From NCBI GenBank assembly GCA_000092065.1, contig CP000584.1: 64,000 nt of DNA, one strand, 5' to 3'. Below are positions 1,151 through 50,984 of this stretch, piece by piece. The stretch's first letter is position 1, and every line of letters starts with the position of its first letter. The stretch is from Ostreococcus lucimarinus. Taxonomy: Eukaryota. The notes under the pieces were generated by a model, which worked only from the letters and a program-made list of their open reading frames with translations, had not been told where the DNA came from and made no database searches. The position numbers and the translations under genes are program-made.

Positions 1151-2475
1151 GCGTCGCGACGACGGCGCGCGTCGGATGGCGTCGCGAGGGCGCGCGGAGA
1201 GCGCCGTCGCGCGGGAGGCGACGCGTGCGCGCGGTGGCGAGGACGCGCGGGGACGAGCGCGGGGACGAAGGCGGCGCGACGAAGGTCTTCGTCTTCGTGA
1301 ATAAGAAATCGGGAGGACGGCGGGGGAGGGAGGTGCTGCGGCGGTTGAGGGAGACGCTGAAACCGCCGCACGTGGTGCTCGACGCGACGAAAGTGCGAGG
1401 GGCGATCGATCGGGGCGAGGTGGATTGGGACGCGGAGACGCGCGTGCTCGTCGCGGGCGGCGACGGTACGGTCGGAATGGTGGTGGACGCGCTTCGACGG
1501 CGGCGTCGCGAGCCGCCGCCGATCGCGATCGCGCCCTTGGGCACCGGTAACGACCTGGCGCGCGTGTTAGGTTGGTCCGGCGACGTGTGGGATGATTCGA
1601 GATTGTTTAGCGAGCGGCGCGTCGTGAGCACGCTTCGGCGCGCGAGACTGCAACGCGTCGATCGATGGTCGCTCGAAATCACTCGCCCGCGACGACGATC
1701 GACGACGAAGAAATTGTTTAGCAATTACATGGGCATCGGTGTCGACGCGCGCGCGGCGTTGGCGTTCGACAGCGCGCGTAAAGATCGTCGTTGGACGTGG
1801 CTGTTCGTCCACGCGCTGACCAACAAGCTCCTGTACGCCGTCTTCGGCGCGCGCGATTTCATAGAGCACTCGTTCGCCGGGTTGAAGCGCGACGTCGAAG
1901 TCACGGTAGATGGAAAAGTGATCGATTTCCCCGAAGACACCGAAGGGATCATCTTGCTCAACATTAATTCCTTTTCGGGCGGCGTACGGATGTGGGCGAC
2001 GAGCGACGAGTTTACGAAATCGCTCAAAGACGACGGCGTCTTGGAGATCGTCGCCGTGAGCGGGGCGCTGCACTTAGGACAGCTCAACGCGCGATTGGCC
2101 AAACCCGTGCAAGTGGCGCAAGGATGCGACGTCCGCATCGAGCTCAAGCGCGATTTGCCGGTGCAAATCGACGGCGAGCCGTGGCTTCAGCGCGGCGCGG
2201 CCACCTTGCGCGTCTCGCTCAACGATTCGTTCACCATGCTCAGGCGTCCGCGTCAAGATCGAATCAACGACTTGCTCGCGCGTTGGTCACGCTCGAACGG
2301 ATTCGCGAGCGAAGACGACGACGCGACGTCGGCGTCGAGCGACGAGCGCCGCGCGAGACGTCGCCGCGCGTTCGCGTTCGCGTTCGCGTTCGCGCTATGC
2401 CTCGCGCTCGCCGCGTTCGTGTTCCCGTGGCGTCATCGGCTCGCGCGCCTCTTCGCGCTGCGCCTCGGGTTGTAA
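1147..2475 (+). CDS. DGK: diacylglycerol kinase (catalytic plus accessory domain), C-terminal hydrophobic anchor
   Basis: KVFVFVNKKSGGRRG, LVAGGDGTVGMVVDAL and IAIAPLGTGNDLARVLGW are the DAGK catalytic-domain motifs. ATG at 1147-1149 is the only in-frame Met before the domain. The C-terminal FAFAFAFALCLALAAFVFPW segment is hydrophobic. The stop TAA lies inside TTGTAAACG, a UGUAA-like motif. Confidence 0.85.
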   Translation: MSVATTARVGWRREGARRAPSRGRRRVRAVARTRGDERGDEGGATKVFVFVNKKSGGRRGREVLRRLRETLKPPHVVLDATKVRGAIDRGEVDWDAETRVLVAGGDGTVGMVVDALRRRRREPPPIAIAPLGTGNDLARVLGWSGDVWDDSRLFSERRVVSTLRRARLQRVDRWSLEITRPRRRSTTKKLFSNYMGIGVDARAALAFDSARKDRRWTWLFVHALTNKLLYAVFGARDFIEHSFAGLKRDVEVTVDGKVIDFPEDTEGIILLNINSFSGGVRMWATSDEFTKSLKDDGVLEIVAVSGALHLGQLNARLAKPVQVAQGCDVRIELKRDLPVQIDGEPWLQRGAATLRVSLNDSFTMLRRPRQDRINDLLARWSRSNGFASEDDDATSASSDERRARRRRAFAFAFAFALCLALAAFVFPWRHRLARLFALRLGL

Positions 2476-2496
2476 ACGTAACAAAAAGAACACAAA

Positions 2497-2527
2497 AAGA
2501 ACAAAAAAAATAAAAAGAATGAAAAAG
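2497..2527 (-). terminator. Pol III terminator T-runs downstream of tRNA-Lys
   Basis: The minus strand immediately 3' of the tRNA reads TCTTTTTCATTCTTTTTATTTTTTTTGTTCTTTTTGTG, with T5, T5, T8 and T5 runs. This is the only A/T-rich patch in the region. Confidence 0.55.
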
Positions 2528-2528
2528 A

Positions 2529-2710
2529 TACCGCGTACGGGGCTCGAACCCGTGACCACACGCTGTCCTTGAACAGCTCTCGGGCGCTCGCGCGCCCTCG
2601 TCGTGTCGTTGTGCGTCGCGAGTGCGACCTCGCGCGTTTAGGCTTACGCCGTCGAAGACTGATTAGAGTCTCTTAAAAGGCGTGCGCTCTACCAACTGAG
2701 CTAACGAGGC
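2529..2710 (-). tRNA. trnK-UUU: tRNA-Lys (anticodon UUU) with a 109-nt intron at the canonical 37/38 position (exons 2674..2710 and 2529..2564; intron 2565..2673)
   Basis: The 5' half is GCCTCGT TA GCTC AGTTGGTA GAGC G CACGC CTTTTA. The 3' half is A GCGTG TGGTC ACGGG TTCGAGC CCCGT ACGCGGT A. The D arm and the T arm with a GGTTCGAGCC T-loop are intact. The anticodon stem CACGC/GCGTG pairs only after intron removal. The acceptor stem has 6 of 7 pairs (4:69 is U-C, 1:72 is G-U). A Pol III T-run follows the 3' end. Confidence 0.7.
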
Positions 2711-2864
2711 ATAGATGGCCGAAAGGACCGTAATATACGACATCCACGATTTTTGTCCCCCCCCAACCGCGACGTCGCGCGTTCGTGCGTGTTACGGTTT
2801 CTTTGCGCGCGCCGACCGACCGGGCGCGACATCTCGCGCGGCCGACATCGTCGCGCGCCCGGCG

Positions 2865-3656
2865 ATGTCGACGTCGGATCTCTCCGACGTCGAGACCGCG
2901 CGCGAGGCGCGCGCGGAGTCCGGTCGCGCCGCGTGCGCGCGCGTGCTCGCGACGCAGCGCGACTACTACCGCGTCCTCGAACTCCCGCGCGCGGCGAGCG
3001 CGGCGGACGTGAAGAAGGCGTACCGAAACCTCGCGCGCGTGCTGCACCCGGACAAGTGCGATGACCCGCGCGCGACGGACGCGATGGCGATCGTCACCTC
3101 GGCGCACTCGACGCTGACGACGCCGGCGCTGAGGGCGGCGTACGACTTGTACGCGGCGCGCGTCGACGTCGGCGACGCGAACGCGGATTCCTTCGGCGAG
3201 TGGCAGAGCAAGGAAGGCGCGGCGGCGGTGCATCTGCCGCCGTGGTTGATCAAAGCGATGGCGACGCCGGTGTTGGCGCAACTCATCGGGTTCTTGGCGC
3301 TGGTGCTGTTGTTGGCCGCGGCGGCGTTGGCGTTGGCGTTGGCGTTGGCGTACTTCGTCGTGCACATGGCGTTTTGGTTCGCGTGCTGTTTCGGGTGCTG
3401 CGGCTCGTGCTGGCCGCGTTACGGCATGGGCGCGCGCGTTCACGCCAAGCGTCAGGCCCGTTTCACGGAGATGCTCAAGGATTACGAGCGCGCCGCGATG
3501 GAGGCGTCGGCGCGCGGCGACGAGGGACCCGCGCCGACGGTTTTCTTCGCGCAGTGGAACGTCGACCACCCGGAGCCGGATTGGGTCGAGCGCATTCGCG
3601 AGGAGGACCGCGCCGAGGCCGCCGCGCGCGCGTCGCCGGCGTACGGCGCGACGTGA
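2865..3656 (+). CDS. DnaJ (J-domain) membrane protein
   Basis: The J domain is DYYRVLELPRAASAADVKKAYRNLARVLHPDKCDDPRATDAMAIVTSAHSTL with the HPD motif. A hydrophobic segment LIGFLALVLLLAAAALALALALAYFVVHMAFWFACCF follows. ATG at 2865 is chosen because the ORF-track start at 2715 abuts the tRNA. Confidence 0.8.
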   Translation: MSTSDLSDVETAREARAESGRAACARVLATQRDYYRVLELPRAASAADVKKAYRNLARVLHPDKCDDPRATDAMAIVTSAHSTLTTPALRAAYDLYAARVDVGDANADSFGEWQSKEGAAAVHLPPWLIKAMATPVLAQLIGFLALVLLLAAAALALALALAYFVVHMAFWFACCFGCCGSCWPRYGMGARVHAKRQARFTEMLKDYERAAMEASARGDEGPAPTVFFAQWNVDHPEPDWVERIREEDRAEAAARASPAYGAT

Positions 3657-3745
3657 CGACCGGCGCGCCTAGTTTGTTGTAATATCGTACCGCGCAACCT
3701 CTTCGCGCTCTTCGGCGGTCCAACCGCCGACCGCCACTCCGCGCC

Positions 3746-4690
3746 ATGGATCGCGCGGCGGTCGCCGCCGCCGACGACGCCGCGTCGACGTCGGACGACG
3801 CGTTCGCGTACGTCGCGCGCGCGCCGTTCGAGCCGCGGCGCTTCGCCGCGCTCCTGCGCGCGAACTTTGACGTCGCGCGCTTCGGCGACGGCGGCGACGA
3901 CGTCATCGCCGGCGCCGCGCGCGACGAGGGCGCGTTCGAGGGCGCGCGCGCGGCGTCGGGCGTGGTTTGGATCGCGTCCCGGCCGAACGTGCGCGGGATC
4001 TTTAGGATGGACGACGGGGACGACGGCGTCGTCGTCGTCGCGTGCGCGGGCGCGTGGCACGAGGACGGCCGCGGCGCGTGCGAGACGCCGGCGGAGGCGA
4101 GCGAACGCGTCTTCTTCGGCGATCGAAGGCAGCACGTAGTTTTTGAAGGCCGCGATCTCGACGCGATGAAAATTAAAGCGCGATTGGACGCGTGCTTGCT
4201 GACCGAAGCCGAGGACGCGGACGAGACGAATCGCGCGAACGAGTCGTACTGCGGTTCGACGTGGCCGACGGCGACGGAGGTGATGGCGAGCGCGGGCGTG
4301 GAGGCGGTCGAGCGCGGGGTGAAACACAAGGCGTTTTACCCGAGCGGTGGCGTCGACGGCGTCGTGGCGTCGACGGCGGCGATGTCGGTGTCGACGTCGC
4401 GCGAGCGCGGCGGCGACGCGTTCCGGGACGTGCGCGTTCCGGAGGCTTTCGCGCCGCCGCTCGCGGGGCAATCAGAAAAGACGTTTCCGGACGGGCAAGT
4501 CGGGTACTTTTTTGAGGACATGCCGTGTTTGGAGTGCGGGTCGCCGTGGTGGTTCGGTGAAGACTGGGACTCGCGTTGCGCCAACTGCGGCGCCGACGAT
4601 CGCACGTACGGCGGCGATCAACGTCCGATTCGGTCAAAGCGGCGGATTTACGACGAGTTTCGCGCGGCGTGGCGTCGACTCGCTGATTGA
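3746..4690 (+). CDS. hypothetical acidic protein: CobW C-terminal-domain-like region plus a C-terminal CxxC...CxxC zinc ribbon
   Basis: ATG at 3746. The segment FAYVARAPFEPRRFAALLRANFDV...SGVVWIASRPNVRGIF...VVFEGRDLDAMKIKARLDACLL follows the CobW_C profile (F..rPF...f..lL, GvvWia, vfiG.dLd...l...L..Cl) but has no GTPase domain. The tail is CLECGSPWWFGEDWDSRCANCG. Confidence 0.45.
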   Translation: MDRAAVAAADDAASTSDDAFAYVARAPFEPRRFAALLRANFDVARFGDGGDDVIAGAARDEGAFEGARAASGVVWIASRPNVRGIFRMDDGDDGVVVVACAGAWHEDGRGACETPAEASERVFFGDRRQHVVFEGRDLDAMKIKARLDACLLTEAEDADETNRANESYCGSTWPTATEVMASAGVEAVERGVKHKAFYPSGGVDGVVASTAAMSVSTSRERGGDAFRDVRVPEAFAPPLAGQSEKTFPDGQVGYFFEDMPCLECGSPWWFGEDWDSRCANCGADDRTYGGDQRPIRSKRRIYDEFRAAWRRLAD

Positions 4691-4713
4691 ATTGTATTGA
4701 ACATTTTTAGAAA

Positions 4714-7700
4714 TTAGAAACCGACGAACTTTTCTTCGCTCGAGTTCGGCGGCGGACCGTTCATCCACGTAAACTTACCCGTCTTCGCGTCTTTGATGCT
4801 CGACAAGTCGGCTCGCGAGAGCTGTTCGGGGAGGAAATGAAGCGGGCGAAGTTTGCCGCTCATGACGGCTTCCCAGTCGATGGTTTCGTACCACGCGTGA
4901 CCCTTGATAGCGCCCAAGCCCGGCGCACGAATGCCTAAGCGGAGCGATTCGTCGCGCACGAAAATTTGCGACAACATCTCGTGCACGTCGTTGTCCATGC
5001 GTCGCGGCACGGGGACGGCGGCGAAATCCGCGCGAACGATGCGTTTGTACAAATCGCGACGCTGTCGGTCGCGAAACGGCGGAAATCCGGCGATCATTTC
5101 AAACACCAAGATACCGAACGCCCAGATATCCGCCGCGCGCGTGCATCCTTGATGCAAGATGAGCTCCGGCGCGAGGTAATCCGGCGTGCCGCAAATGGTG
5201 TACGCGCGTTGGCCTTTTTCCAACTTTTTCGCAAATCCAAAGTCACCGATCGTGATCGAGCCATCCGAGCGCAAGAGCAAGTTTTCGGGTTTCATGTCGC
5301 GATAGACATACCCGGCGCTGTGAATGTACTCCAGCCCGAGCAAGACTTGCGCGGTGTACACTTTGATTTGCCCAATGCCGGGTAATCCGCTTCTGTTGAA
5401 CAAGTCAAACATATCGCCGACGCAATCCTCGACGACGAGATATAGTGCCCATGGGTCCTGAAACGAGGCATAGTAGTTGCAAACGAACGGTGCATGGCGG
5501 AGTTCTTCTAGCGCGCGCCTTTCTGCCATACAATGCTCTTCTTCACCGTTTTCGATGACTTGCGATTTCGGCATGGTTTTAATCGCACACACCTTGCCCG
5601 AGCCCTTGTGCTTGGCGCGCAACACCAGACCGACCATGCCTTGTCCGAGGATGTCCACGACTTCGAACTCATTCAGACTCTTCGTACCTTGAAGCTCTAC
5701 GATCGTGGGACTGTGCGATCGTAGCGAGCCACTGAGCGCTGAGGAACGCTTCTCTTTAAGCGACGTCGCCGGCGGCTCGTGCAACATCGCCGTCTCCTCC
5801 GCGAGCACTGGCAAATGACCCGCTGATCCAGCTTGCGGAGACTTCTTCGCTCGTCCAAACGCGGCAAACTTCTTGCCAAAACGTAGGTGCTCGCTGGACG
5901 TTGATAACAGGTTCGATTGCGATCCGCTCGATGGCGACGGTGGCGACGGATCCAAGAACGTCGACACCGGCGCGCTGAGGTTAGGCGCGCTCGGATTCGC
6001 CGCGATCCGAAGACCAGCCAAAGCGCTGCTCGATCCTCGTTGCCGGCTCTCAGCACCTGGAATTCCGACGCCCGATTCTTCGTCGGCGCGCCTACTCGGC
6101 TCCATGTCTGCGCCGACGGAATCGACACCGATGACTTGCAAGACAAAGTTTTGCGTGCACGTCAAAATCACCGTATCCGTGAGCGCAATGTACACCCCTT
6201 GCATGGTCGTCTCTCCCGCCAAGACTTCGTCGCCGAAGTATCCACCGCTCGTGATCTTTCTGACCTTCGTCCGTCCGTTTTCCTTCATAGAGCACTCGAC
6301 TTCTCCGTCCATCACCATGAACATCTTCACTTGCATGCCTTCTCTGAAAATGACTTCACCGGCGCGGTAAGCGCGTCTACCGCGCTGCACGAGCAATTCA
6401 CTCAACGCCTCTAAACTCGCGTGTTCAAATGGCTTGAACACCGGACAATGTATGACGGCATCGTACGCCGCCTTGCGCGCCTTGGACATGACGTCTTGAA
6501 TCACCGCCGCGAAGACTTTTCGCGTGATGCCGAGCAAGACAGAATCCTCCGCGGCGACAAGCTTTGAAGGCGACGGCGTCGGTTCGGTGAGCACTTCTTC
6601 ACCCCACGTGTCACCAGACTTTAATGTCGTTCCATCCGGCACGACGTTAACTTTGCCATCAATGAGAAGGTAAAACGTATCCGCGCCTTCTCCCGCTTGT
6701 ATCACCGTGGCCCCCTCCGGGAACACCAAGCGCGTCGCCGCCTTGCTCAACGCCTCGACTAAAAGCCCGGCCAAACCGGCGTGACGCACGGCTGGAATCG
6801 AGCGAAGCGCCGATGCGAAAATATCGAGCTCCCACGATTGCGGCGGCGTCACGAGGTCGATGTATTGCGTGTTTTGAATGCCGCTTGCGCCTTCGCTCAC
6901 GCCCGGCAACGTTTGCTCCGTCGGGACGAAATCGGCGTCTCGAGGGATGGAAAATCGCTGCGAAATCGCGCGTCGATGACGCCTTAAAAGGAGAACCGAC
7001 TTAATGTACGCCAAGTCCGTCTCGCTCACCTTGCCGTGGGTCTTCATGTCCAAAAGTAAAAAACAATTTTCAACCGTGTCGCCGACGGTGAATAAATTTC
7101 CTCGAATCACGCTAATACCTCTCGCGACGCACGCGGTACAAAAATCTGCCATCAGCCCCGGTCGATCTAGCACTTGCATTTTAATCTCTGTCGCGTTTTC
7201 CACATCCTTATCGTCGAAGAGCACGCCGTGCACGCTTCGTTCCTTGGACACGAACGTTTCGTCTCGCTCCTCCTCCGCGAAGGGGCCGTACTTCTCCGTG
7301 TCCTCTGGGTCCTCCTCCGTCACCGCCTCCAGCGCGGCTTGCCTCTTCTCCGGTTTCTTCCGCACGATGTCCTCCAACTCTTGACTCACCTGCTCGCTCG
7401 ACTGTTCGCTCAATTTACACCGCGTCTCCTCCTCGCACACGTACAGCGTGTACAACACGCGTCGACTGTCCCGCACCACGTCCGCCTGCACCACGTTCAC
7501 CCCTTTCCGCGTCAAGTACGTCGCGATCTCGCTTATCAACCCAACGCGATCGGCGCACTCGATCCGTATGTACGTGTGATGCTCGTTCGCCGTGTTGCTC
7601 ACCGCCACGCGCGCCGCGTCCGCGTCGTCCGCGTTCAAAGTCGTCCCCGCGAGCTCGTCCGCCGCGTCCGCGACGCCGTCCGACCTACTCCCGCCTCGCT

Positions 7701-7743
7701 TCGAGCTTCGCGCGCGACTGAGAAATCTCTTGAGCAGTCCCAT
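4714..7743 (-). CDS. cGMP-dependent protein kinase-like AGC kinase with two N-terminal ACT domains and two cyclic-nucleotide-binding domains
   Basis: ATG at 7743. Two ACT domains are marked by YIRIECADRVGLISEIATYLTRKGVNVVQADV and IKMQVLDRPGLMADFCTACVARGISVIRGNLF. Two cNMP-binding domains are marked by GATVIQAGEGADTFYLLIDGKV and GEVIFREGMQVKMFMVMDGEV. The kinase has LGQGMVGLV, VCAIK, YRDMKPENLLL, DFGFAKK and GTPDYLAPE, with an AGC C-terminal tail. Confidence 0.85.
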   Translation of the reverse strand: MGLLKRFLSRARSSKRGGSRSDGVADAADELAGTTLNADDADAARVAVSNTANEHHTYIRIECADRVGLISEIATYLTRKGVNVVQADVVRDSRRVLYTLYVCEEETRCKLSEQSSEQVSQELEDIVRKKPEKRQAALEAVTEEDPEDTEKYGPFAEEERDETFVSKERSVHGVLFDDKDVENATEIKMQVLDRPGLMADFCTACVARGISVIRGNLFTVGDTVENCFLLLDMKTHGKVSETDLAYIKSVLLLRRHRRAISQRFSIPRDADFVPTEQTLPGVSEGASGIQNTQYIDLVTPPQSWELDIFASALRSIPAVRHAGLAGLLVEALSKAATRLVFPEGATVIQAGEGADTFYLLIDGKVNVVPDGTTLKSGDTWGEEVLTEPTPSPSKLVAAEDSVLLGITRKVFAAVIQDVMSKARKAAYDAVIHCPVFKPFEHASLEALSELLVQRGRRAYRAGEVIFREGMQVKMFMVMDGEVECSMKENGRTKVRKITSGGYFGDEVLAGETTMQGVYIALTDTVILTCTQNFVLQVIGVDSVGADMEPSRRADEESGVGIPGAESRQRGSSSALAGLRIAANPSAPNLSAPVSTFLDPSPPSPSSGSQSNLLSTSSEHLRFGKKFAAFGRAKKSPQAGSAGHLPVLAEETAMLHEPPATSLKEKRSSALSGSLRSHSPTIVELQGTKSLNEFEVVDILGQGMVGLVLRAKHKGSGKVCAIKTMPKSQVIENGEEEHCMAERRALEELRHAPFVCNYYASFQDPWALYLVVEDCVGDMFDLFNRSGLPGIGQIKVYTAQVLLGLEYIHSAGYVYRDMKPENLLLRSDGSITIGDFGFAKKLEKGQRAYTICGTPDYLAPELILHQGCTRAADIWAFGILVFEMIAGFPPFRDRQRRDLYKRIVRADFAAVPVPRRMDNDVHEMLSQIFVRDESLRLGIRAPGLGAIKGHAWYETIDWEAVMSGKLRPLHFLPEQLSRADLSSIKDAKTGKFTWMNGPPPNSSEEKFVGF

Positions 7744-8084
7744 CGCGCGCGTCGCGCGCGCGCGCGTCCTCGCGCGTCGCGCCTTTACGATTGTTTATCG
7801 CGCGCGCGTCGCCTCGCGCGCCTCCGACGCGCTCGACGCGTCGCGCGCGCGTCCTCGCGCCGTCGCGCGCGCGCGCGCGTCGGACGTCCGGTCGCGCGTC
7901 GCTCGCGTCGTCGCGCGCGCGTCGTCGCGCGCGCGTCGTCGCGCGTCGAGCTCTGCGGTCGCGTCGGTCGCGGGACGCGGTCGGGACGCGGTCGGGACGC
8001 GCGCGCCGCTTCGCGACGCGCGACGACGCCGACGCGCGCGGCTCGCGACGCGCGCGCGCGTCCCGGACGCTCGACGTCGCGCGC

Positions 8085-8699
8085 ATGCCGTGGTTCGTGT
8101 GCGAGTCGTGCGGGGACACGCTGAAGAAGCCGAAGATTAAGGCGCACTTTAACCGCTGCGCCGCCGAGGCGTTCAGTTGCATCGACTGCAGCGCGACGTT
8201 CGATCGACGGAGCGTGCAGAATCACGTGGCGTGCGTGACGGAGCACGAGAAGTACGCGCTGGGGGCGACGAAGGGGGCGGCGGGACACGAGCGGGCGCGA
8301 GCGGTGGCGGCGGAGGGGACGGAGCGACGCGGCGGGGACGGCGGCGAGACGTTCGGAGAGGAGTTCCTGTCGACGAGGCCGCCGTGGAGGTGCTCGTGCT
8401 GCGGGGTGTCGTGCACGAGCGAGGAGACGCTGTCGGGGCACGCGAGCGGGAAGAAGCACAAGAGTAAGGCGAGGAGCGCGAGAGCGCGGGCGGCGGGCGA
8501 GACGCCGGGGAACGCCGAAACGGCCGAGGCGGTCGAGGCAAAGGCGAAGGATGAACGCGTTGAAAAGAAGGTGAAGAAGGAGAAGAAGGAGAAGAAGGAG
8601 AAGAAGGAGAAGAAGGAGAAGAAGGAGAAAAAAGGGAAGAAGTCTTCCGAAAAGGATTCATCCGACGACGGACCGAAGCGCAAAAAGGCGAAGAAGTAA
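8085..8699 (+). CDS. LYAR: LYAR-type C2HC zinc-finger nucleolar protein with a Lys/Glu-rich tail
   Basis: MPWFVCESCGDTLKKPKIKAHFNRCAAEAFSCIDCSATFDRRSVQNHVACVTEHEKY matches the LYAR N-terminal zf pattern (MVFFTCNACGESVKK...HV.C.SEDQKY). A second U1-like C2H2 finger is WRCSCCGVSCTSEETLSGHASGKKHKSK. The tail is (KKE)n. ATG at 8085 is in frame with ORF 7791..8699, whose upstream part is a low-complexity extension. Confidence 0.8.
   Translation: MPWFVCESCGDTLKKPKIKAHFNRCAAEAFSCIDCSATFDRRSVQNHVACVTEHEKYALGATKGAAGHERARAVAAEGTERRGGDGGETFGEEFLSTRPPWRCSCCGVSCTSEETLSGHASGKKHKSKARSARARAAGETPGNAETAEAVEAKAKDERVEKKVKKEKKEKKEKKEKKEKKEKKGKKSSEKDSSDDGPKRKKAKK
8574..8636 (+). repeat. coding 9-bp tandem repeat (GAGAAGAAG)n giving the (KKE)n tail of LYAR
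   Basis: Read directly: gaagaaggagaagaaggagaagaaggagaagaaggagaagaaggagaagaaggag. Confidence 0.5.
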
Positions 8700-8743
8700 G
8701 TCTGCTCTCGCGCGAATATCTAAATCTAATAACATTGCTAATA

Positions 8744-11281
8744 TCAAATCTTCACTTCTACTTCGTCGCCATCCGTGCACCGTTTGGACTTGAGCACGAA
8801 CGTCGGCGCGTCGTCGTCGGGCGAGCCGCTCACCAGGGAAAGTATGTGCGCGGCGCCGATAAAGTCCATGAAAAGCGAACCATCCTGAGCTGGCGCGATG
8901 CCCCATTTACCTTTGCCCCACGGCGTGTCGAGTGTACCATCTTTATGAAGGACTAATCCCGGATTACCTCCCCAAGATCCGGGTGCGGTCTCCGTCTTTT
9001 GCGACATCGCCAGAGCGAGCGGCGAATTATCGATGCCGTTGTGTTGCGCTCGCAACTTACACTCCTTCGCTCCCTTCCTCCCTTCGCTCCAGTTCCAGAC
9101 ATCAATCGCATTTGCTTCACCTTTCCAGTACTGCGCTATGACGGACACCATGCGATCGGGCTTTTCAGGGTGGTAGTTGATGTGCACGCTTGCGGGTCGG
9201 TGATCTGGGTACAGATCCTCGTCGTAACGCATGAAGCGGAACATGTACTTGGAATTCTGGAAACACATGTAGTTCATCACGCGCTGGCTCGTTCCAGAAT
9301 ACTTCTTATGCTTGGACTGACCCCAGAGATACACCTGCTCCTCGTTGTACGCCGTCTGGTCCCACGTATTCTTCTCCGACGCCATGCGTTCGGCGAGTCT
9401 TGACATCATCGCCTTCGTCTCGTGCGTCGCCGCGACGAAAAACAACCCGCTATTCCGTGCGATCAACCGTCGCTGACCGTTCCATGAGAAACCGTACGAC
9501 GTCGGATCGTCCCATCCATCGGTCATTCCTTCGACGTCGGCGTCTCGATAGATCAAGCGTTTGTTTCTCGCGCTCTCACCTGCAGCGAAAGGATCTTGCA
9601 TCCAAACCACATCCACATCCGATAACAACACCGACGTCCCAGTGGATACGAATTCATTCAACACTCGGAACTTTAATCCCGACGTCGCGTGATTGTCAGT
9701 ACTACCTGTGATTGACGTTAGCTCGCGGTGATAGTACGGCACCTCGCGCTGCTTGCACCAATCCGCAGTCTCGCTATCGAGAGCCACAATGACGTAGTTC
9801 GTGATCCCCGTCCGCTTCAACCCATCGATGTACAGCTCAAGCATGTGAAAGATGTTCTTGTTACTCACCGCCGCGAGAACTTCGCGGTTTCGCGCGACTT
9901 TTCTAACCACCTCGCACAAATCCGCAAACTCGTCGCACGCGACCGGGTACTCACCCTCGGGCTCGGCGATGTATCGCAGCTCTCGCGGCTTCGGTCCTAT
10001 TCTCTCGTCTGCCTTCACGATGCCACATTTCTCCCTTCGCATTACGTGCGCCTTCGCATCCTTAAAGTTGGGCTCTTGCGCCACGACGGCGTTTTCATCC
10101 GTCGTCTGACCGTCCCAATGCGTCGAACCGTCGGGCACGTGAGCGACGCTCCCCTTTTCGGCAAAACACTCCGAATTAAGTAATCGAAACGATACACCCG
10201 CACGCTGCCGCGCATCGTGCGCTGGTAGGAGAATTTCATCCGTGAGAGCGTCGTCGCTTCCGTCAAAGTCGGACGCTTCCGACGCCAACCAATGGACGAG
10301 CGAATACGTCGCTCGCGTAGGTCGAAGCACCACGAACGTCGTCCGAATGAGAGGAATCACCATCGATTGCGAGTACTGCGACCACCCCATGGCGGGATCA
10401 GCCATGCCTTGCACGCGTGCGCTCCTCTTTCCGTCTCCTCGAATCGTCGCGCTCACGTCGGCGCCGTCGTCGAGCAACGCCGTCAAAGGATTCGACGCGA
10501 ACTTCACCGTCGACGACGCCAGAGCGACGGCGTGCCCGCGTTGCAGCACCACCGCCGCCGTCATCCATCCTCCCTCGTTTCTGCTCGCACCCTCGCTCGG
10601 CAAATGCGACGGCACGCCGGCCGTCTCGCACGTCGCCTTCTCCGTCTCGCTCGTCGTCGCCACCAACACCGCGCGCGCCCCGGACGCTTTCGCCGCTCGC
10701 ACGCGCGCGTCGATCGTACCACCGTACACGACCAAAAATCCAAACTCCGCGGAATCTTCCGAGCGAAGTTTCGCGAGATGCGCGCACGCCGTCGTCTCGA
10801 GCGTCGCGTCCCGCGTCGCCTCTCGCGCCTCGCCCGGCGCCGCGCACGACGCCCTTCCTCGCGCCGCCTTCGGCGCGCGTTCGACCCACGCCTCGGGCAC
10901 GCTCAACTCACCGTGCGTCGACGTCCGCGCCGTCGCCATCGCGTCGCGCGTTGTCGTCGTCGTCGTCCCGTCGTCGCCGTCTCGCGCGCGTCCCGCGAAG
11001 TCTCCGCGCGCGTCCCGCGGTCGCGTCGCCTCCGGCGCGCGCTCCATCGCGCGCCCGCGCGCGTCGTCCGCGACCATCGCGCGCGCGTTCGCCGCGCTCG
11101 AGCGCGCGTCGCTCGAGCGCGCGTCGATGGTTTCGGGCGCGAAAGTCTCGCGCGCGGTGAACGGTGAACGGCCGCGCGCGGCGACGACGCCCAGCGCGAC
11201 GACGACGCACGCGATCGCGCCCGCGCGCGCGATGGCGCGCGTGACGCCGCGACGGACGACCCGGCGGACGACGCGCGCCAT
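8744..11281 (-). CDS. type-II membrane glycosyltransferase, GT77-like nucleotide-diphospho-sugar transferase domain (RRA/XEG113-like arabinosyltransferase family) with a PA-like N-terminal region
   Basis: ATG at 11281 and a signal anchor MARVVRRVVRRGVTRAIARAGAIACVVVALGVVAA. The Nucleotid_trans (GT77) core is YVIVALDSETADWCKQREVPYYH...FRVLNEFVSTGTSVLLSDVDVVWMQDPF...GLFFVAATHETKAMM...WDQTAYNEE. The N-terminal FGFLVVYGGTIDARVRAAKASGARAVLV segment resembles a PA domain. A C-terminal 120-aa GKGKWG region is unassigned. Confidence 0.7.
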   Translation of the reverse strand: MARVVRRVVRRGVTRAIARAGAIACVVVALGVVAARGRSPFTARETFAPETIDARSSDARSSAANARAMVADDARGRAMERAPEATRPRDARGDFAGRARDGDDGTTTTTTRDAMATARTSTHGELSVPEAWVERAPKAARGRASCAAPGEAREATRDATLETTACAHLAKLRSEDSAEFGFLVVYGGTIDARVRAAKASGARAVLVATTSETEKATCETAGVPSHLPSEGASRNEGGWMTAAVVLQRGHAVALASSTVKFASNPLTALLDDGADVSATIRGDGKRSARVQGMADPAMGWSQYSQSMVIPLIRTTFVVLRPTRATYSLVHWLASEASDFDGSDDALTDEILLPAHDARQRAGVSFRLLNSECFAEKGSVAHVPDGSTHWDGQTTDENAVVAQEPNFKDAKAHVMRREKCGIVKADERIGPKPRELRYIAEPEGEYPVACDEFADLCEVVRKVARNREVLAAVSNKNIFHMLELYIDGLKRTGITNYVIVALDSETADWCKQREVPYYHRELTSITGSTDNHATSGLKFRVLNEFVSTGTSVLLSDVDVVWMQDPFAAGESARNKRLIYRDADVEGMTDGWDDPTSYGFSWNGQRRLIARNSGLFFVAATHETKAMMSRLAERMASEKNTWDQTAYNEEQVYLWGQSKHKKYSGTSQRVMNYMCFQNSKYMFRFMRYDEDLYPDHRPASVHINYHPEKPDRMVSVIAQYWKGEANAIDVWNWSEGRKGAKECKLRAQHNGIDNSPLALAMSQKTETAPGSWGGNPGLVLHKDGTLDTPWGKGKWGIAPAQDGSLFMDFIGAAHILSLVSGSPDDDAPTFVLKSKRCTDGDEVEVKI

Positions 11282-11386
11282 CGCGCGCGGTCGCGCGTCG
11301 GGCGATGCGGCGACGCGCGCGGCGCTCGAGGCTGCGAACCGGCGCGCGCGCGTTTAAAAAGCTTTACATCGTAATCTAGCGTTCCG

Positions 11387-12154
11387 TCACATCGTCGTCG
11401 ACCAACTCGTGCCGCGAGTGTTGATGGCGGACCCCGGACGCTCGTCCCCGGCGGCGAACTGCACGGCGCTCAGCAGCTGCTCCACCTCTGGGTGGGCGTT
11501 GGTGTCGATGGCGACTTCGCCGCGAACGATCATTCTCGACGTCGGTAACTGCGCCTCGGGAACGCTGGCGTCGTTGAGGCCGTAGAAATCTCGCGTATCA
11601 TCGTCTCGCGTGCTAAAATACGTCACCTCGACCCCGGCGCCGATGAAGACGCCCTTGGAATACGAGTAGTGGTGCACGCCGACGGCTTTTCGCGCCTCGC
11701 GTCCGTCGACGTACTTTGAATCCATCCCGATGAACGCGCTTCCATCGATCGACCGACCCAGCGGTCCGAGCGACACGCTCGCCGTGAGTCCAACCTTGAC
11801 GCTCTGCTCGCTGAAGCACGTCTCCACCGCCTCATCCGTGTCCAGCACGTACACCTGCGCGTCCTCCTTGTACCCGACGCCGAACATCCCCGTCGCCCCG
11901 CCCCCGCTCAGCGCCACGGGCGCGCCCCACGCCTCGCTCCCGGGTTTCTTCGCGATCAACACGCCGTGCGTGAACGTGCCTCCGCCGAAGAATCCCACGG
12001 TGTACGACGTCAAGAACGCGATCCCTCGCGCCTCGCGAAGGTGTTCGGACCCGATCTCCATGTCCGTGTCCGCCGTCGCCGCGCTCGTGTAGTCCTCCAG
12101 CATGGCGATCGCGCGCAGGATCTCGCGCTTCAACTGCAGGTGTTTCGAGCTCAT
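11387..12154 (-). CDS. Ysc84/SH3YL1 (DUF500) actin-binding lipid-binding domain protein
   Basis: ATG at 12154. The protein begins MSSKHLQLKREILRAIAMLEDY and includes GIAFLTSYTVGFFGGGTFTHGVLIAKKPGSEAWGAPVALSGGGATGMFGVG...VKVGLTASVSLGPLGRSIDGSAF...YSYSKGVFIGAGVEVTYFSTR, the canonical Ysc84 domain. Confidence 0.8.
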   Translation of the reverse strand: MSSKHLQLKREILRAIAMLEDYTSAATADTDMEIGSEHLREARGIAFLTSYTVGFFGGGTFTHGVLIAKKPGSEAWGAPVALSGGGATGMFGVGYKEDAQVYVLDTDEAVETCFSEQSVKVGLTASVSLGPLGRSIDGSAFIGMDSKYVDGREARKAVGVHHYSYSKGVFIGAGVEVTYFSTRDDDTRDFYGLNDASVPEAQLPTSRMIVRGEVAIDTNAHPEVEQLLSAVQFAAGDERPGSAINTRGTSWSTTM

Positions 12155-12276
12155 CGCGCGCCGTGCGTCGCGCGCGCGCGCGTGTGGCGCCTCTCAGTGT
12201 CGTCAACGTTTAGTGTTACGACGCCGCGACGCCGCGACGCCGCGCGCGACGACGCACGGCGACGCGCGACGCGGGC

Positions 12277-13968
12277 ATGCGCGCGCGCGCGCGCGCGCGT
12301 CGCGACGCCGACGACGACGACGACGACGACGCGCGCGCGCGTCGCGCGCGACGCGACGGCGATGACGGTTGGTCTGCCGCGGCGAGACTGCGCGAGGCGT
12401 CCGCGCGCGGCGACGTCGCGGCGTGGACGGGAGACGACGCGCGCGCGTTCGTGAACGCGCGCGGCGTCGACGCGATCGCGGGCGTCGGACGCGCGCGGGC
12501 GAGGGAGGCGGCGACGGCGCTGTCGCGCGCGCTGGGCGCGACGCCGCGCGCGGGCGAGACGACGTCGGCGCTGACGACGACGACGAGGGACGAGAGACGG
12601 GCGCCTCGCGAGGCGGTCGACGACGGCGATGGTGATGCGCGCGATGCGTTCAGCGGACGACCGGGCGTCGCGCGAGGGGTGGAGCTGGACGCGGAGGCGT
12701 TCGAGGGGATTTTGGCGGACGCGTCGGAGCGACGGGACGCGCGGGCGCTGTACGCCGCGCAGGTGCCGATGGCGCGCGTGGGCGAATTGGATGTCGATGG
12801 AACGCTTTACGACGAAGGGTTTCGGAGGTTTTGCGAGAGGCACGACGCGCAGAGACATTGCTGGGTCAACGGCGCGAAGCGGGCGACGACGAATTTGCAC
12901 TACGACAACTACGATAACGTTCTCGCGGTGTTGTCGGGTGAGAAGCGCGTGCGCCTGATTCAACCTTCGTTCTGCGCGGGTGGTGGTGAGAGGCCGTTTG
13001 GGGGGGTGTGCGCCGGCGCCGACGACTCGAACCACGCGTGTGGAAAACTCGAGACGGCGCCGACGTGGCGTTTCTTCACGCTCGGGCCGGGCGAATCCAT
13101 TTTTATTCCGAGCGGTTGGTATCACGAAGTGACGTCGGCCCCGTTTACAGTCGCGGTGAGTCATTGGTGGCGAAACGATTTCAACGCAGCTCTCGAAACG
13201 GTGCTCCGTGACGGGAGACGCAGCACGTATCACTTTCGCAGAGCGTTTGAATCGGCGCTCGACGTCTCCGTACACAACGAAACCGAGTCCTGTCGCGCCG
13301 TTGTTCGCGAAATCATGGAACGCGAGCTCGTCAAAAATAGGACGCTGACGTATAGAGTACTCGATGCGTACATTGGCAACTTCGTTCCGTGGGACGACGT
13401 GTTTGATTTTTTAACGCGTCGCGGAACGAGTTTGATCACAAAGGAAAATCGCCTCGAGCTCGGAACGGAGCGCGAGTCTCGCAAAGAGAACGAAAAAACA
13501 GTGAACGCATTTATCACTCGCATTTGGTTAAAAGACGGCATCGACCTCTCCGTCATGACTCGGTACTTGAAAGCGATGACGCCTGACAAAAACATCGCCA
13601 CTGCGTTGAGTCACGCGCTGCGCGAAGCCCAATCATCCGCGTCTCGTTCGACGGAGGAATCGGACGCCAGTCGTGCGCATCACCATCACGATTGCATCTA
13701 CGCGCATCACTTCGACATATTTTGGCGTGCCGTGACGACGGCGCTCGAATCGGGCGACGCCGAGTCGTGGGGAGCGCTGTACGCCGCCGCGCGGTGCGAA
13801 GAATTTCCACGAAACGACGACGTCGTGCGAGCGGTACTGCGCAACCAAAAATACGCCGTCGCATACCGCGCGCAAGCGCTTCTACAGGACAACTTAGAAG
13901 ACGACGACGTGTGTTTCACCGTAGACGTTCGAGTGCGTAGACGTGCGGAGCTCGCAGTAGACTTTTAG
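12277..13968 (+). CDS. JmjC (cupin) domain protein
   Basis: HCWVNGAKRATTNLHYDNYDNVLAVLSGEKRVRLIQP...GPGESIFIPSGWYHEVTSAPFTVAVSHWW is a JmjC cupin fold with the H.D...H metal triad. ATG at 12277; an alternative in-frame ATG at 12769 would remove the acidic, low-complexity N-terminus. Confidence 0.75.
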   Translation: MRARARARRDADDDDDDDARARRARRDGDDGWSAAARLREASARGDVAAWTGDDARAFVNARGVDAIAGVGRARAREAATALSRALGATPRAGETTSALTTTTRDERRAPREAVDDGDGDARDAFSGRPGVARGVELDAEAFEGILADASERRDARALYAAQVPMARVGELDVDGTLYDEGFRRFCERHDAQRHCWVNGAKRATTNLHYDNYDNVLAVLSGEKRVRLIQPSFCAGGGERPFGGVCAGADDSNHACGKLETAPTWRFFTLGPGESIFIPSGWYHEVTSAPFTVAVSHWWRNDFNAALETVLRDGRRSTYHFRRAFESALDVSVHNETESCRAVVREIMERELVKNRTLTYRVLDAYIGNFVPWDDVFDFLTRRGTSLITKENRLELGTERESRKENEKTVNAFITRIWLKDGIDLSVMTRYLKAMTPDKNIATALSHALREAQSSASRSTEESDASRAHHHHDCIYAHHFDIFWRAVTTALESGDAESWGALYAAARCEEFPRNDDVVRAVLRNQKYAVAYRAQALLQDNLEDDDVCFTVDVRVRRRAELAVDF

Positions 13969-14017
13969 TAGATAGAATCCAAAATCCTCAAACCGCCGCG
14001 CTCGAGTAGACATCGAC

Positions 14018-14776
14018 ATGTTCGCCCTGTCCGCATCGACGGCGCACGCGCCTGCGTTCGCGTCCTACCCGTCGCACCCGCGTGCGCGCGCGCGCGCGCG
14101 TCGCGTCGCGTCGTCGTTCGCGCGCCAGACCTCTGTCCCAATCGCGCGCGTTCGCGACGCCATCGCGCGCGCCTCGAGCGCCGATGAATCGAACGACGAC
14201 GCGAGTGATACCGTGACGAGTGGTTCTTCTTTCGATGGGTTCTCCACGACGCCTGGTGACGAGGACGCGCAGTACATCGCGGACATGGTGACGGAGATCA
14301 AAGACTGGCTCAAGCTGCTGTACGTCAAGCGAGAGATGTCGTTCAACGAAATCAAGCTCACGGTCGGGATCGAGGACCCGAGATTGGCGGAAAATCGAGA
14401 GCGATACGGGATTGAAGACGAGAGCGGGGTGAGCGCGGACGAAAAGGTGGAGACGCTTGAGATGATTGAACGAGGGGAAACGCCGACGGATGCGCGAGCG
14501 GTGTCGACGCTTTTGGAAGAGTTTAGGAATTGGCCGGGATTGGACGCGGTGGTGGATCAAAGCGTGGATGCCGGTCCTTCGAGGTATGAAGAAATCGCGA
14601 TGCGATCGGCGGGCATCAAGACGTCGAACCCGCGGCGGGTTCGAGCGAAAGAGGCGGAGGAGGAAAAGAAGGAGGGCACGATTTTTGGCTTCTTGCCGTT
14701 GTACCTGGTGAGCGCGGTGCCGATTTTCATCACCGTCTTCGCGGTCGGTATCATGTTCGTCAACTCGCTACAATAG
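14018..14776 (+). CDS. hypothetical tail-anchored membrane protein with a transit-peptide-like N-terminus
   Basis: ATG at 14018. The N-terminus MFALSASTAHAPAFASYPSHPRARARARR is Ser/Ala/Arg-rich, the middle is acidic, and the C-terminus carries a single TM, IFGFLPLYLVSAVPIFITVFAVGIMFV. No family recognised. Confidence 0.45.
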   Translation: MFALSASTAHAPAFASYPSHPRARARARRVASSFARQTSVPIARVRDAIARASSADESNDDASDTVTSGSSFDGFSTTPGDEDAQYIADMVTEIKDWLKLLYVKREMSFNEIKLTVGIEDPRLAENRERYGIEDESGVSADEKVETLEMIERGETPTDARAVSTLLEEFRNWPGLDAVVDQSVDAGPSRYEEIAMRSAGIKTSNPRRVRAKEAEEEKKEGTIFGFLPLYLVSAVPIFITVFAVGIMFVNSLQ

Positions 14777-14804
14777 ACTAATTTTGTGACGCCTGCTAAT
14801 TCAA

Positions 14805-16271
14805 CTAAACCTCCCGAAACGGGTTCGTTTCGCGTCGTCGTCGCTGTTCGCTGCGTTGCCTCGTCTTCGTTCGAACGAAGCGATACACGATGACGCAAAA
14901 GCCAACGACCCAAGTAAGGCTTCCCATCGTCCACATGCGATGCATCCGTTCTTCGTGCGCAATTTCTCGCTCGACTTTTAACGTGGCTTTCCTCGCTAAC
15001 AGACGCTCTGTGGCGTCACCCGCACGCTCCGCTCGATGCATCACCGGGACTGGCGTCGGCTTTTGCGTCATTCTGGGTTTCACCTTAGGATCCTCTCGCG
15101 ATGGCTTCATCGGTACGTCTCTTCCTTTAGGTATTATCGGCAACGACTTTGTTTCGACTCGATGACTACGAGCGCCCCGCCCGCATTTCTCATCGTTGTA
15201 CTTTTTCACTGCGTCGTTGATCGCCGACACCGTGATGTACATAATTTTCACCTTGATGTAATTGTGACGCTCTTGCTGCAACGCGTGCGCGCTCGGGCGC
15301 TTCGGGTAAGGCACAACGGGGAACGGTTCCACATCTCGCGTGGCGCACGTCATACGCTCCAAGTGCCCAGGCTCCCAATGTTTATCCCACGAGTACGGGC
15401 CCTCGTCCATCCTCAAACCGTAGTGCACGATGAACGGGTCGGCGCTTGCCTCATCCCACGGCTTCATACCTGCGTACAGCTGTACGGATCGCATCACGTT
15501 GTGCGTCAACCCCGCCAACCCGCAACCGAAGACGAACCCGTACATTTCCGAAATCCACGGCCTTGGCGATTCCTCGGAGACGTACACGTCGCCGGTGCCG
15601 CGATACGGAAACCAAATCCTCTTATCCATGCGCACCTTCACCGTTTGCGCAAACCAGTGCGGCGTCATGTTCACAAAATCTTCAGCGTCAAATATCTCCC
15701 ACCCACCCACGGGCGCGAGCCTTTTCTCCACCTCCTCGTCCACGAACCACTTGGCCATTCCGTTCTTCGTGCCGACGAGATAATCGTATTGACCGCTCGC
15801 GGCGACGCCCTTGCTCGCTGGAATCTCTCTCACGCTCAGCGGTTTTAGCAACAACATGTCCGCGTCTAGCTTCACCACCCACTTTCGATCCGTGCCGACG
15901 TTTTGCGCCCAATGATTCATCCCTCCCGGCAAGTTATACGCAGAGTATCCGTCGTCGTCCCCAAACTTTTCCTTGGCGTACCACACGAACGACGGGCACT
16001 TGACCGTGTCCGGCACCACGTCCATGTGTTCGTACCGCGCGTACTCGTCATCCGTGCACGATATCAATCGCGTCATGCGTCCAGGGCTGCCAATCGCGCG
16101 CCACGACTCATACAGCGCGCGCGCCTGCCAAGTCATGTACGGTTGGCAATCGGCGGAAAAGACGTAGTGATAGTCATCGATCTCGCGTCGTTCGCTCGCG
16201 TCGTCGAGGTCGGCGAACGCCAGGGATGCGCGCGCGAGCAGCGCGACGAGCGCGAGGGCGCGCGCGCGCAT
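14805..16271 (-). CDS. HPAT/SGT-like glycosyltransferase (GT95/GT96 family: hydroxyproline O-arabinosyltransferase / peptidyl-serine galactosyltransferase type)
   Basis: ATG at 16271 with a signal or anchor MRARALALVALLARASLAFA. YHYVFSADCQPYMTWQARALYESWRAIGSPGRMTRLISC matches the HPAT core pattern YH.V.TA...Y..WQ.R..Y......PG..TR(L/I). A C-terminal TM is LTWVVGFCVIVYRF. Confidence 0.6.
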   Translation of the reverse strand: MRARALALVALLARASLAFADLDDASERREIDDYHYVFSADCQPYMTWQARALYESWRAIGSPGRMTRLISCTDDEYARYEHMDVVPDTVKCPSFVWYAKEKFGDDDGYSAYNLPGGMNHWAQNVGTDRKWVVKLDADMLLLKPLSVREIPASKGVAASGQYDYLVGTKNGMAKWFVDEEVEKRLAPVGGWEIFDAEDFVNMTPHWFAQTVKVRMDKRIWFPYRGTGDVYVSEESPRPWISEMYGFVFGCGLAGLTHNVMRSVQLYAGMKPWDEASADPFIVHYGLRMDEGPYSWDKHWEPGHLERMTCATRDVEPFPVVPYPKRPSAHALQQERHNYIKVKIMYITVSAINDAVKKYNDEKCGRGARSHRVETKSLPIIPKGRDVPMKPSREDPKVKPRMTQKPTPVPVMHRAERAGDATERLLARKATLKVEREIAHEERMHRMWTMGSLTWVVGFCVIVYRFVRTKTRQRSEQRRRRETNPFREV

Positions 16272-28997: not shown

Positions 28998-29810
28998 TCA
29001 CGGCGCCGCCTCCACGACGACGAGTAAACCGAGTAAAGCGCGCTGCGTCTTCACGACGCGCATGCCAGACTGTCGCACCAGCGACTCCACGTCCTGATTC
29101 CACACGCATCCTTTGCTCATGCGCTTCACCGGCGCCGACGTCAAATCTTGATACGCGCCCAACGCGCCGACGTCGCTCTTACTGTGCTCGATCAACACCG
29201 CCCGTCCTTTCGATCGCAGCACTCGCCTGACCTCTCGCAGCGCCGCCGACGGATCCTCGATCACGCACAGGCTGAACGTATCGACGACGACGTCGAACGA
29301 TCCATCGTCGAACGGCAGCGCCGTCGCGTCCGCCTCCTCGAACCGCGCCTTCTCGCCCAGCGCCAGCGTCTCCGCCCGCGCCTTCGCCCGCGCCAGCATT
29401 CCCGGCGACAGATCGATCGCCGTGTACGTCTTCACCCTGTTCGCGTCGTACGCGCGCAGGTTGAGCCCGGTGCCGACGGCGAGCTCCAACACGTCGCCCT
29501 CGCACCGCGCGAGCGCGTCCGCGCGCAGCGCGTCCAGCCCCAGCGCGCGCGCCGCGCCGCCGCCGTCGAGCGCGTCGTACGTCGGCGCGTACGCGTCGTA
29601 CGCCGTCTTCACGTCCGCCGTCTTCGCGCGCGCGTCGCCCGCGCCCAGCGCGCGCGTCGCCGCCGCCGCGACCGCCGCCTCGAGCACCGCGCGTCGCGTC
29701 GCCCGCGTCGCGTCGCGCGTCGCGCGCGTCGCGCCGCCGCGCCGCCGCGTCGCGCCGCGCGACGTCACCGCGCGCGTCGCCGCGCGCGTCGCCGCGATCG
29801 ACGTCGCCAT
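28998..29810 (-). CDS. class I SAM-dependent methyltransferase (Methyltransf_11, UbiE/COQ5-like) with a transit-peptide-like N-terminus
   Basis: VLELAVGTGLNLRAY (motif I, GxGxG), DATALPFDDGSFDVVVDTFSLC and GRAVLIEH. ATG at 29810 (MATSIAATRAATRAV). The ORF-track start at 29846 is a GTG codon. Confidence 0.7.
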   Translation of the reverse strand: MATSIAATRAATRAVTSRGATRRRGGATRATRDATRATRRAVLEAAVAAAATRALGAGDARAKTADVKTAYDAYAPTYDALDGGGAARALGLDALRADALARCEGDVLELAVGTGLNLRAYDANRVKTYTAIDLSPGMLARAKARAETLALGEKARFEEADATALPFDDGSFDVVVDTFSLCVIEDPSAALREVRRVLRSKGRAVLIEHSKSDVGALGAYQDLTSAPVKRMSKGCVWNQDVESLVRQSGMRVVKTQRALLGLLVVVEAAP

Positions 29811-50921: not shown

Positions 50922-50984
50922 CGCGCGCGACCGAGTGACGCCGCGACACACCGCGACGCGACGCGACGCGACGCGACGCGGACG

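Follow-up and report, generated by a model that had tools for sequence, protein, structure and literature searches.

The minus strand of positions 2710 to 2529 very likely holds a functional nuclear tRNA-Lys(UUU) gene of Ostreococcus lucimarinus, in which 73 nt of exon sequence are interrupted by one intron of 109 nt. The DNA analyzed, referred to here as the window, is a 64-kb stretch of the nuclear genome of O. lucimarinus CCE9901, a green alga of the picoplankton, and has 62.5% G+C and A/T-rich spacers. The open reading frame that adjoins the tRNA (2715–3656, plus strand) is identical to XP_001417238.1 from the same strain. The initial annotation gave the gene as 2529–2710 and left the strand unsaid; these coordinates are correct, and the gene lies on the minus strand. 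The gene and its exons are arranged as follows.

2529–2710, minus strand: tRNA-Lys(UUU) gene, 73 nt of exon plus a 109-nt intron (RF00005, ARAGORN -i, syntenic orthologues)
2674–2710, minus strand: 5′ exon of 37 nt, tRNA positions 1–37, GCCUCGUUAGCUCAGUUGGUAGAGCGCACGCCUUUUA (sequence reading and coordinate script)
2710, 2707 and 2677–2675, minus strand: G1, U4 and anticodon U34–U36, respectively, within the 5′ exon
2565–2673, minus strand: intron of 109 nt between positions 37 and 38 (ARAGORN, same result with the position free or fixed)
2529–2564, minus strand: 3′ exon of 36 nt, positions 38–73, AGCGUGUGGUCACGGGUUCGAGCCCCGUACGCGGUA
2533, 2530 and 2529, minus strand: C69, U72 and discriminator A73, respectively, within the 3′ exon

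The Rfam tRNA model RF00005 matches the locus from 2710 to 2529 over its full length (model positions 1–71) with 45.7 bits, compared with a gathering score of 29, and with an E-value of 1.5e-6 for the whole 64-kb window, where it is the sole Rfam family above threshold. The match contains a single insertion of ~110 nt on the 3′ side of the anticodon. ARAGORN run with intron search (-i), a check proposed in the initial annotation, finds a tRNA-Lys(ttt) whose intron has 109 nt, a call that does not change when the intron is fixed at 37/38. Both programs agree on a single intervening sequence that begins one base 3′ of the anticodon, which bears out the original reading: a tRNA-Lys(UUU) whose 109-nt intron occupies the canonical 37/38 site. 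In its default mode, ARAGORN misses the gene because its intron search is off. The two halves are co-linear on the minus strand, with the 5′ half followed by the 3′ half, and the gene is not circularly permuted. Elsewhere in the window, ARAGORN -i made three further calls, at 26822–26909 (minus strand), 29955–30120 (plus strand) and 50831–51050 (plus strand), two of them as tRNA-Ala(CGC) and one as tRNA-Val(GAC). With 79–85% G+C, unusual arms and no match above the Rfam tRNA threshold, they are probably false positives of GC-rich sequence.

Internal A and B boxes and a downstream T-run are all present, recognized by reading the sequence against the respective consensus, and a TATA-like string lies upstream.

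2692–2703, minus strand: A box, TAGCTCAGTTGG, tRNA positions 8–19 (sequence reading)
2540–2550, minus strand: B box, GGTTCGAGCCC, tRNA positions 52–62 (sequence reading)
2482–2528, minus strand: Pol III terminator region with tracts T5, T5, T8, T5 and T5, trailer UCUUUUUCAUUCUUUUUAUUUUUUUUGUUCUUUUUGUGUUCUUUUUG
2731–2737, minus strand: TATA-like TATATTA at −27 to −21 (sequence reading; putative role)

The A box fits the Pol III consensus TRGCNNAGTGG, and the B box fits the consensus GGTTCGANNCC. The first T5 tract begins 3 nt past A73. A T-run terminator had been recognized from the start, although the tracts listed then (T5, T5, T8, T5) were one T5 short of those read here. T-runs also directly follow the orthologous genes of O. 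tauri and of an oceanic Ostreococcus lineage, here called spX, whose DnaJ protein is ~75% identical to that encoded in the window. TATA-like strings are likewise found upstream of the spX genes and of the copy in a related lineage, L122. RNA polymerase III would transcribe the gene from the internal A and B boxes, which lie ~150 bp apart from start to start owing to the intron, and would stop in the T-tracts right after A73. On the other side of the gene, the model of the 313-aa DnaJ protein XP_001417238.1 starts 5 nt from the tRNA 5′ end and reads through the tRNA upstream region (2715–2865, plus strand). Since its orthologues have 251–281 aa, the N-terminal ~50 residues of this model are probably not real.

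The locus is found in related genomes with its exons largely intact. In O. tauri, the orthologue (GCA_000214015.2, CAID01000004.2) is flanked by the same two genes, for diacylglycerol kinase and DnaJ, and 70 of its 73 exon positions are identical (96%), the differences being U17C and the exchange of the C50-G64 pair for U50-A64. The acceptor stem is identical, including a U4·C69 mismatch, and the intron has 64 nt and is mostly unalignable. A metagenome scan with the D-arm and anticodon-stem sequence yielded 120 loci, and further loci were collected via homologues of the neighbouring DnaJ protein. All O. lucimarinus-like matches of the scan represent one locus, with 97.4–99.3% identity. The same exons are present in 13 further O. 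lucimarinus-type contigs from different samples, 12 of which also have an identical intron; the exception, L113, carries four intron substitutions. One additional contig, L048, corresponds to window positions 1193–15485 (99.0% identity over 14 kb). It combines four acceptor-stem changes with the 109-nt intron of the window, which 13 of the 14 other contigs carry unchanged. Its acceptor stem, GCCUGGU/AUCAGGU, consists of standard pairs throughout, and positions 4–7 and 66–69 match the viral copy described below. Unlike L048, the other 13 contigs keep the U4·C69 form. A host/viral assembly chimera was considered for L048 and rejected, because the mixed positions are 2–3 nt apart and hence too close for a k-mer path switch. 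An apparent divergence in another contig, L137, is a scaffold gap of Ns.

Among 10 distinct sequences (host alleles and viral copies), 98.6% of the cells in cloverleaf pairs are standard, and unpaired cells occur at 4:69 only. Six pairs change on both sides, the covariation score is reached by none of 500 shuffles, and slid controls are 22–68% paired. The D and anticodon arms are fixed by the search pattern, so that this comparison is informative for the acceptor and T stems only. Together, the syntenic orthologues and the compensatory stem changes argue that the tRNA match is not a chance one. In L122, another Ostreococcus lineage, the orthologous gene (3835–3929 of a 617-kb JGI contig, sample 3300033183) has a 21-nt intron, several acceptor mismatches and no T-run within ~190 nt downstream, and may be a pseudogene or have an unusual architecture. 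No tRNA was detected in L129–L131 (DnaJ 66–67% identical), either by ARAGORN -i and Rfam or by motif reading of the sequence upstream of the DnaJ orthologue; these loci lack the tRNA at this position, or it lies beyond the sequence covered.

To describe the splice junction, the precursor was folded with the cloverleaf as a constraint. In this fold, the anticodon stem CACGC/GCGUG pairs and is extended by an anticodon–intron helix of 4 bp, composed of C32:G(−3), U33·G(−4), U34:A(−5) and U35:A(−6), next to which lies a bulge.

2676–2679, minus strand: 5′ strand of the anticodon–intron helix, C32 U33 U34 U35 (constrained fold)
2567–2570, minus strand: 3′ strand of the anticodon–intron helix, intron positions −6 to −3, AAGG (constrained fold)
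2564–2566, minus strand: 3-nt bulge at the 3′ splice site, A(−2), C(−1) / A38 (constrained fold)

The initial annotation held that splicing must come before the anticodon stem can form. This is wrong: CACGC and GCGUG can and must pair in the precursor, stacked on the anticodon–intron helix. Across five lineages (O. lucimarinus, O. tauri and three spX haplotypes), every one of the 20 helix cells is paired and a 3-nt bulge can be drawn. The intron strand of the orthologues shows purine-for-purine changes only and faces invariant U33–U35. L122 has the same helix with a bulge of 4 nt. In minimum-free-energy (MFE) folds, the helix is not always chosen. A bulge–helix–bulge at the exon–intron junctions had been named as a point to check. 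The strict archaeal-type motif has two 3-nt bulges exactly 4 bp apart and an outer helix beside them. Of this, O. lucimarinus has the 4-bp helix and the 3′ bulge, and the full motif can be drawn (5′ bulge U36, A37 / A+1, followed by G+2:C−7, A+3:U−8 and G+4·U−9), but spX does not keep the outer helix and MFE folding favours other pairings. In the structure of human TSEN bound to a pre-tRNA, a C32:G pair and a 4-bp anticodon–intron helix are followed by three flipped-out bases, the last of which is nucleotide 38, and the rest of the intron forms a flexible loop, so that, according to the authors, any intron length is accepted (PMC10539383). The modelled O. lucimarinus junction appears to have the same geometry as this human substrate.

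In the proposed processing, the precursor would adopt a normal cloverleaf, in which the anticodon stem stacks on the 4-bp helix between C32–U35 and the purine-rich AAGG near the intron 3′ end, with A(−2), C(−1) and A38 bulged out. The tRNA splicing endonuclease would measure from the mature body and cut between 37 and +1 and between −1 and 38, and tRNA ligase would then join the halves into a 73-nt tRNA reading AAA and AAG. In several relatives, namely O. tauri (L132, tRNA at ~1154–1290), L126–L128, L002, L122 and L023, the intron starts with AGCGA, a repeat of the AGCGU at the start of the 3′ exon. Because of this repeat, the splice sites could move by up to 4 nt with the product unchanged, and it is probably also the reason why ARAGORN reads the O. 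tauri gene incorrectly, as “tRNA-Stop(tta)”.

An intronless tRNA-Lys(UUU) of the form GUCUGGU...AYCAGAU-A is found in prasinovirus-type contigs of ~40% G+C (L005, L009, L010, L021, L024, L046, L054, L065, L066, L084, L103, L106 and L108) and in the IMG/VR loci L155, L180, L187, L190–L192 and L196. Many of the ~40% G+C contigs with tRNA clusters are giant-virus MAGs in IMG/VR, and the intronless tRNA-Lys(UUU) is present in all of these contigs. The viral cluster comprises tRNAs for Lys, Ile (UAU, with an intron), Gln, Tyr, Asn and Met, and L103 additionally encodes a PHO4 transporter, an FtsH-like protease and a topoisomerase IB. Positions 8–65 of the viral tRNA-Lys correspond to the predicted spliced host sequence, and the correspondence is exact in the variant found in L021 and L054. 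As the viral tRNA equals the spliced Ostreococcus tRNA except in the acceptor stem, it suggests that a host tRNA was captured in spliced form. Algal giant viruses carry a spliced-form copy of the host tRNA-Lys, and this copy indirectly supports the predicted splice junction.

The interior of the intron shows few distinguishing features. At E ≤ 10, no Rfam family other than the tRNA model overlaps it; the best other match nearby, to snoR17, falls for the most part in the trailer and reaches 17 bits, with 60 required. A motif search of the intron found no C box (RUGAUGA), no D box (CUGA) and no usable H/ACA arrangement or suitably placed ACA. Folding z-scores against shuffles are ordinary for the intron (−1.02) and for the precursor (−0.95). 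The intron is not repeated elsewhere in the window, which contains only GC-rich chance matches of 10–17 nt, and a mobile element was rejected on these grounds. Only two elements recur among the introns of related lineages, and both adjoin the 3′ strand of the anticodon–intron helix.

2582–2597, minus strand: recurrent 6-bp hairpin, GGGCGC-GCGA-GCGCCC (O. lucimarinus, spX and O. tauri)
2571–2577, minus strand: GCTGTTC motif, common to the O. lucimarinus and spX introns, with GCTATC in O. tauri (alignments)

The hairpin stems read GGGCGC/GCGCCC in O. lucimarinus, GAACGC/GCGUUC in spX and GAACGA/UCGUUC in O. tauri, so that three of the six pairs change on both sides; the pairs were counted by script, because MAFFT mis-registers the hairpin owing to its different loop sizes. 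This comparison covers three independent lineages and tentatively suggests that the hairpin and the GCUGUUC motif may be part of the presentation of the splice-site helix. Intron length varies from 21 nt in L122, through 55/56, 72 and 110 nt in spX and 63/64 nt in the O. tauri type, to 109 nt in O. lucimarinus. A separate origin of the 109-nt O. lucimarinus and 110-nt spX introns was considered and set aside in view of weak shared central blocks in the global alignment (TCGACG...GCGCGAG..CGC). Common descent of the long intron, with a deletion giving rise to the 55/56-nt allele, appears at least as likely. In the spX contig L002 (~127–330), the last part of the 5′ exon (anticodon loop) has been copied into the intron as a 16-nt tandem duplication, GCCTTTTAAGCGAAAC, and the way in which this intron grew from 56 to 72 nt is visible in its sequence.

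The initial annotation raised the possibility that the long intron hosts a snoRNA-like or otherwise structured element. Such an intron would carry a functional RNA of its own, be it a snoRNA-like guide, a regulatory hairpin or a stable intron-derived RNA, a reading we regard as very improbable. It would account for the 6-bp hairpin near the intron 3′ end with its three compensatory pairs, but the hairpin adjoins the splice-site helix and is more simply read as part of the substrate presentation. The GCUGUUC motif common to O. lucimarinus and spX, and the retention of a ~110-nt form with weak central similarity in two lineages, would also agree with a functional RNA, as would the placement of all four L113 substitutions in predicted unpaired positions, for which we estimate a chance of ~6%. 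Against this stand the lack of an Rfam family and of C/D or H/ACA boxes in the intron, the z-score of −1.02 and the range of orthologue lengths (21, 55/56, 63/64, 72, 109 and 110 nt). In addition, the intron of spX contigs with an identical DnaJ protein (P0109) has either 110 nt or, with the central ~54 nt missing, 55/56 nt, which makes this central part dispensable in nature. The suggestion of a hosted element therefore finds no support, given an interior that is unconserved and naturally deletable. Most of the intron interior appears to be evolutionarily free sequence and does not look functional, and we retain the reading of an ordinary, if long, intron in a functional gene.

The acceptor stem, GCCUCGU/ACGCGGU, is formed by G1·U72, C2-G71, C3-G70, the mismatch U4·C69, C5-G68, G6-C67 and U7-A66, with A73 as the discriminator. 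The irregularities at 4:69 and 1:72 had been pointed out at the outset; both are real and can be read directly from the sequence. The U4·C69 mismatch reduces the model score, to 45.7 bits compared with 49.8–50.2 bits for the O. tauri-type and spX-110 orthologues. One interpretation is that the locus is a decaying or non-functional pseudogene and that another gene supplies tRNA-Lys(UUU). This is extremely unlikely. The mismatch and the oversized intron could be taken as symptoms of decay, and the L122 copy looks degenerate, so that the locus can apparently decay in some genomes. However, O. tauri keeps the acceptor stem together with the mismatch, although intron and flanks have diverged beyond alignment, and no exon difference occurs among 13 other natural O. 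lucimarinus-type contigs, whose trailers and, in one case, intron do differ. Pairing in the T and acceptor stems is preserved by compensatory changes, both internal boxes, the terminator and the geometry of the splice site are intact, and the O. lucimarinus-like matches of the metagenome scan all fall at one locus. The gene thus retains its conservation, stems and Pol III signals, with one conserved mismatch as the single irregularity, and its earlier description as probably functional agrees with these findings. The O. lucimarinus genome contains only 44 tRNA genes (PMC3673656), which makes redundancy for the UUU decoder unlikely; O. tauri has 45–48.

In a functional gene, U4·C69 might itself be functional and not just tolerated, for instance by tuning recognition by lysyl-tRNA synthetase, by a processing enzyme or by a virus- or host-encoded tRNA-targeting factor. 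We consider this rather unlikely. Both O. tauri and O. lucimarinus keep the mismatch, one spX haplotype has another (U4·U69) at this pair, and 4:69 is the sole pair with non-standard cells in the family. Yet the pair is standard at the same locus in L048 (U-A), spX-110 (A-U) and L002 (G-C), as well as in the viral copies (U-A), and pairing at 4:69 is hence compatible with function. Conservation in two species could also reflect inheritance under weak selection, because AAA is disfavoured in these GC-rich genomes; the codon bias of these genomes has been described (PMC3673656). Being shared with O. tauri, U4·C69 is probably old and tolerated. G1·U72 with A73 is invariant in all Ostreococcus alleles and prasinovirus copies compared, and this combination appears to be a lineage-wide feature and not a defect of the locus. 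Both G1·U72/A73 and U4·C69 are thus best seen as inherited features of the tRNA and not as damage, and the latter suggests that a mismatch in the acceptor stem can be kept stably by inheritance in more than one species.

The spX loci (L144–L153, L004, L022, L100 and L123–L125) share an identical DnaJ and comprise three tRNA-Lys haplotypes, which have introns of 110 nt, of 56 nt with U4·U69, and of 55–56 nt, and differ in their acceptor and T stems. Between two spX contigs, the flanks show 0–1 differences per 100 nt, and the ~450 nt centred on the tRNA show 8–17 per 100 nt plus indels. Acceptor types recur across species in the form GCCUGGN/N′UCAGGU and resemble that of the intronless prasinovirus tRNA-Lys. 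Selection, balancing or diversifying, might explain these patterns, as might exchange with viral copies; a tRNA-targeting activity is a conceivable cause. That the tRNA-Lys(UUU) locus of Ostreococcus is a hotspot of host–virus co-evolution nevertheless seems improbable to us. A more mundane reading of the divergence peak is that transcription-associated mutagenesis, which is known for tRNA genes (PMC6130373), is extreme at a gene that is single-copy and very strongly transcribed, with compensatory changes becoming fixed afterwards; haplotypes that are old or were exchanged offer an alternative to it. Whatever its origin, the variation constitutes a natural experiment in which a substrate of a eukaryotic splicing endonuclease gains or loses ~54 nt of intron interior within a species while the anticodon–intron helix and the 3′ bulge are kept. 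In a different part of the window, positions 29628–29731 are ~75% similar over ~100 nt to L004 (3718–3818) and L002 (1268–1368). The similar piece belongs to a ~2.4-kb insertion of spX that lies between the kinase gene and the tRNA and carries a gene with a DAO domain.

The O. lucimarinus intron is several times longer than those of yeast or human genes, and its length had been presented as exceptional. The figure of 109 nt stands, but the length is less exceptional than that, as the tRNA introns of O. tauri have already been described as “unusually long (~64 nt)” (PMC13578239). In green algae, most amino-acid families have intron-bearing tRNA genes (PMC3531208), and a catalogue of the tRNA sets exists for both Ostreococcus genomes (PMC3673656). 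With 109 nt, the intron is at the upper end of the long tRNA introns found throughout the genus, and since such introns are already documented for Ostreococcus, the finding is an ordinary one. By itself, it is minor: it confirms an intact tRNA gene in a published and catalogued genome, with a trait already described for the genus.

Among known systems, the archaeal tRNA-Trp intron of Haloferax volcanii has ~105 nt and contains a box C/D guide RNA. It resembles the O. lucimarinus intron in length and in its location in the anticodon-loop region; the latter differs in lacking C/D boxes, in its unconserved interior and in its eukaryotic host. Permuted and multi-intron tRNA genes are known from Ostreococcus, Micromonas and Cyanidioschyzon (Maruyama 2010; Soma 2007; reviewed in PMC3978253). 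They share with the gene described here the organisms, BHB-like junctions and the splicing endonuclease, whereas the O. lucimarinus gene is co-linear with one canonical intron. Pre-tRNAs cut by Sen/TSEN, such as yeast tRNA-Lys(UUU) and human pre-tRNA-Arg (PMC10539383), likewise have the intron at 37/38, a C32:G pair, a 4-bp helix and a 3-nt bulge ending at nucleotide 38, and are likewise recognized through the mature body, with the distal intron free. The tRNA-Lys(UUU) gene on chromosome 4 of O. tauri (CAID01000004.2), a species whose tRNA genes are catalogued in PlantRNA, differs in its intron of 64 instead of 109 nt, in its T stem (AUGGG/CCCAU instead of ACGGG/CCCGU) and in having C instead of U at position 17. 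It has the same synteny, orientation, 37/38 site, anticodon–intron helix, 3-nt bulge and hairpin position, and an identical acceptor stem with G1·U72, U4·C69 and A73.
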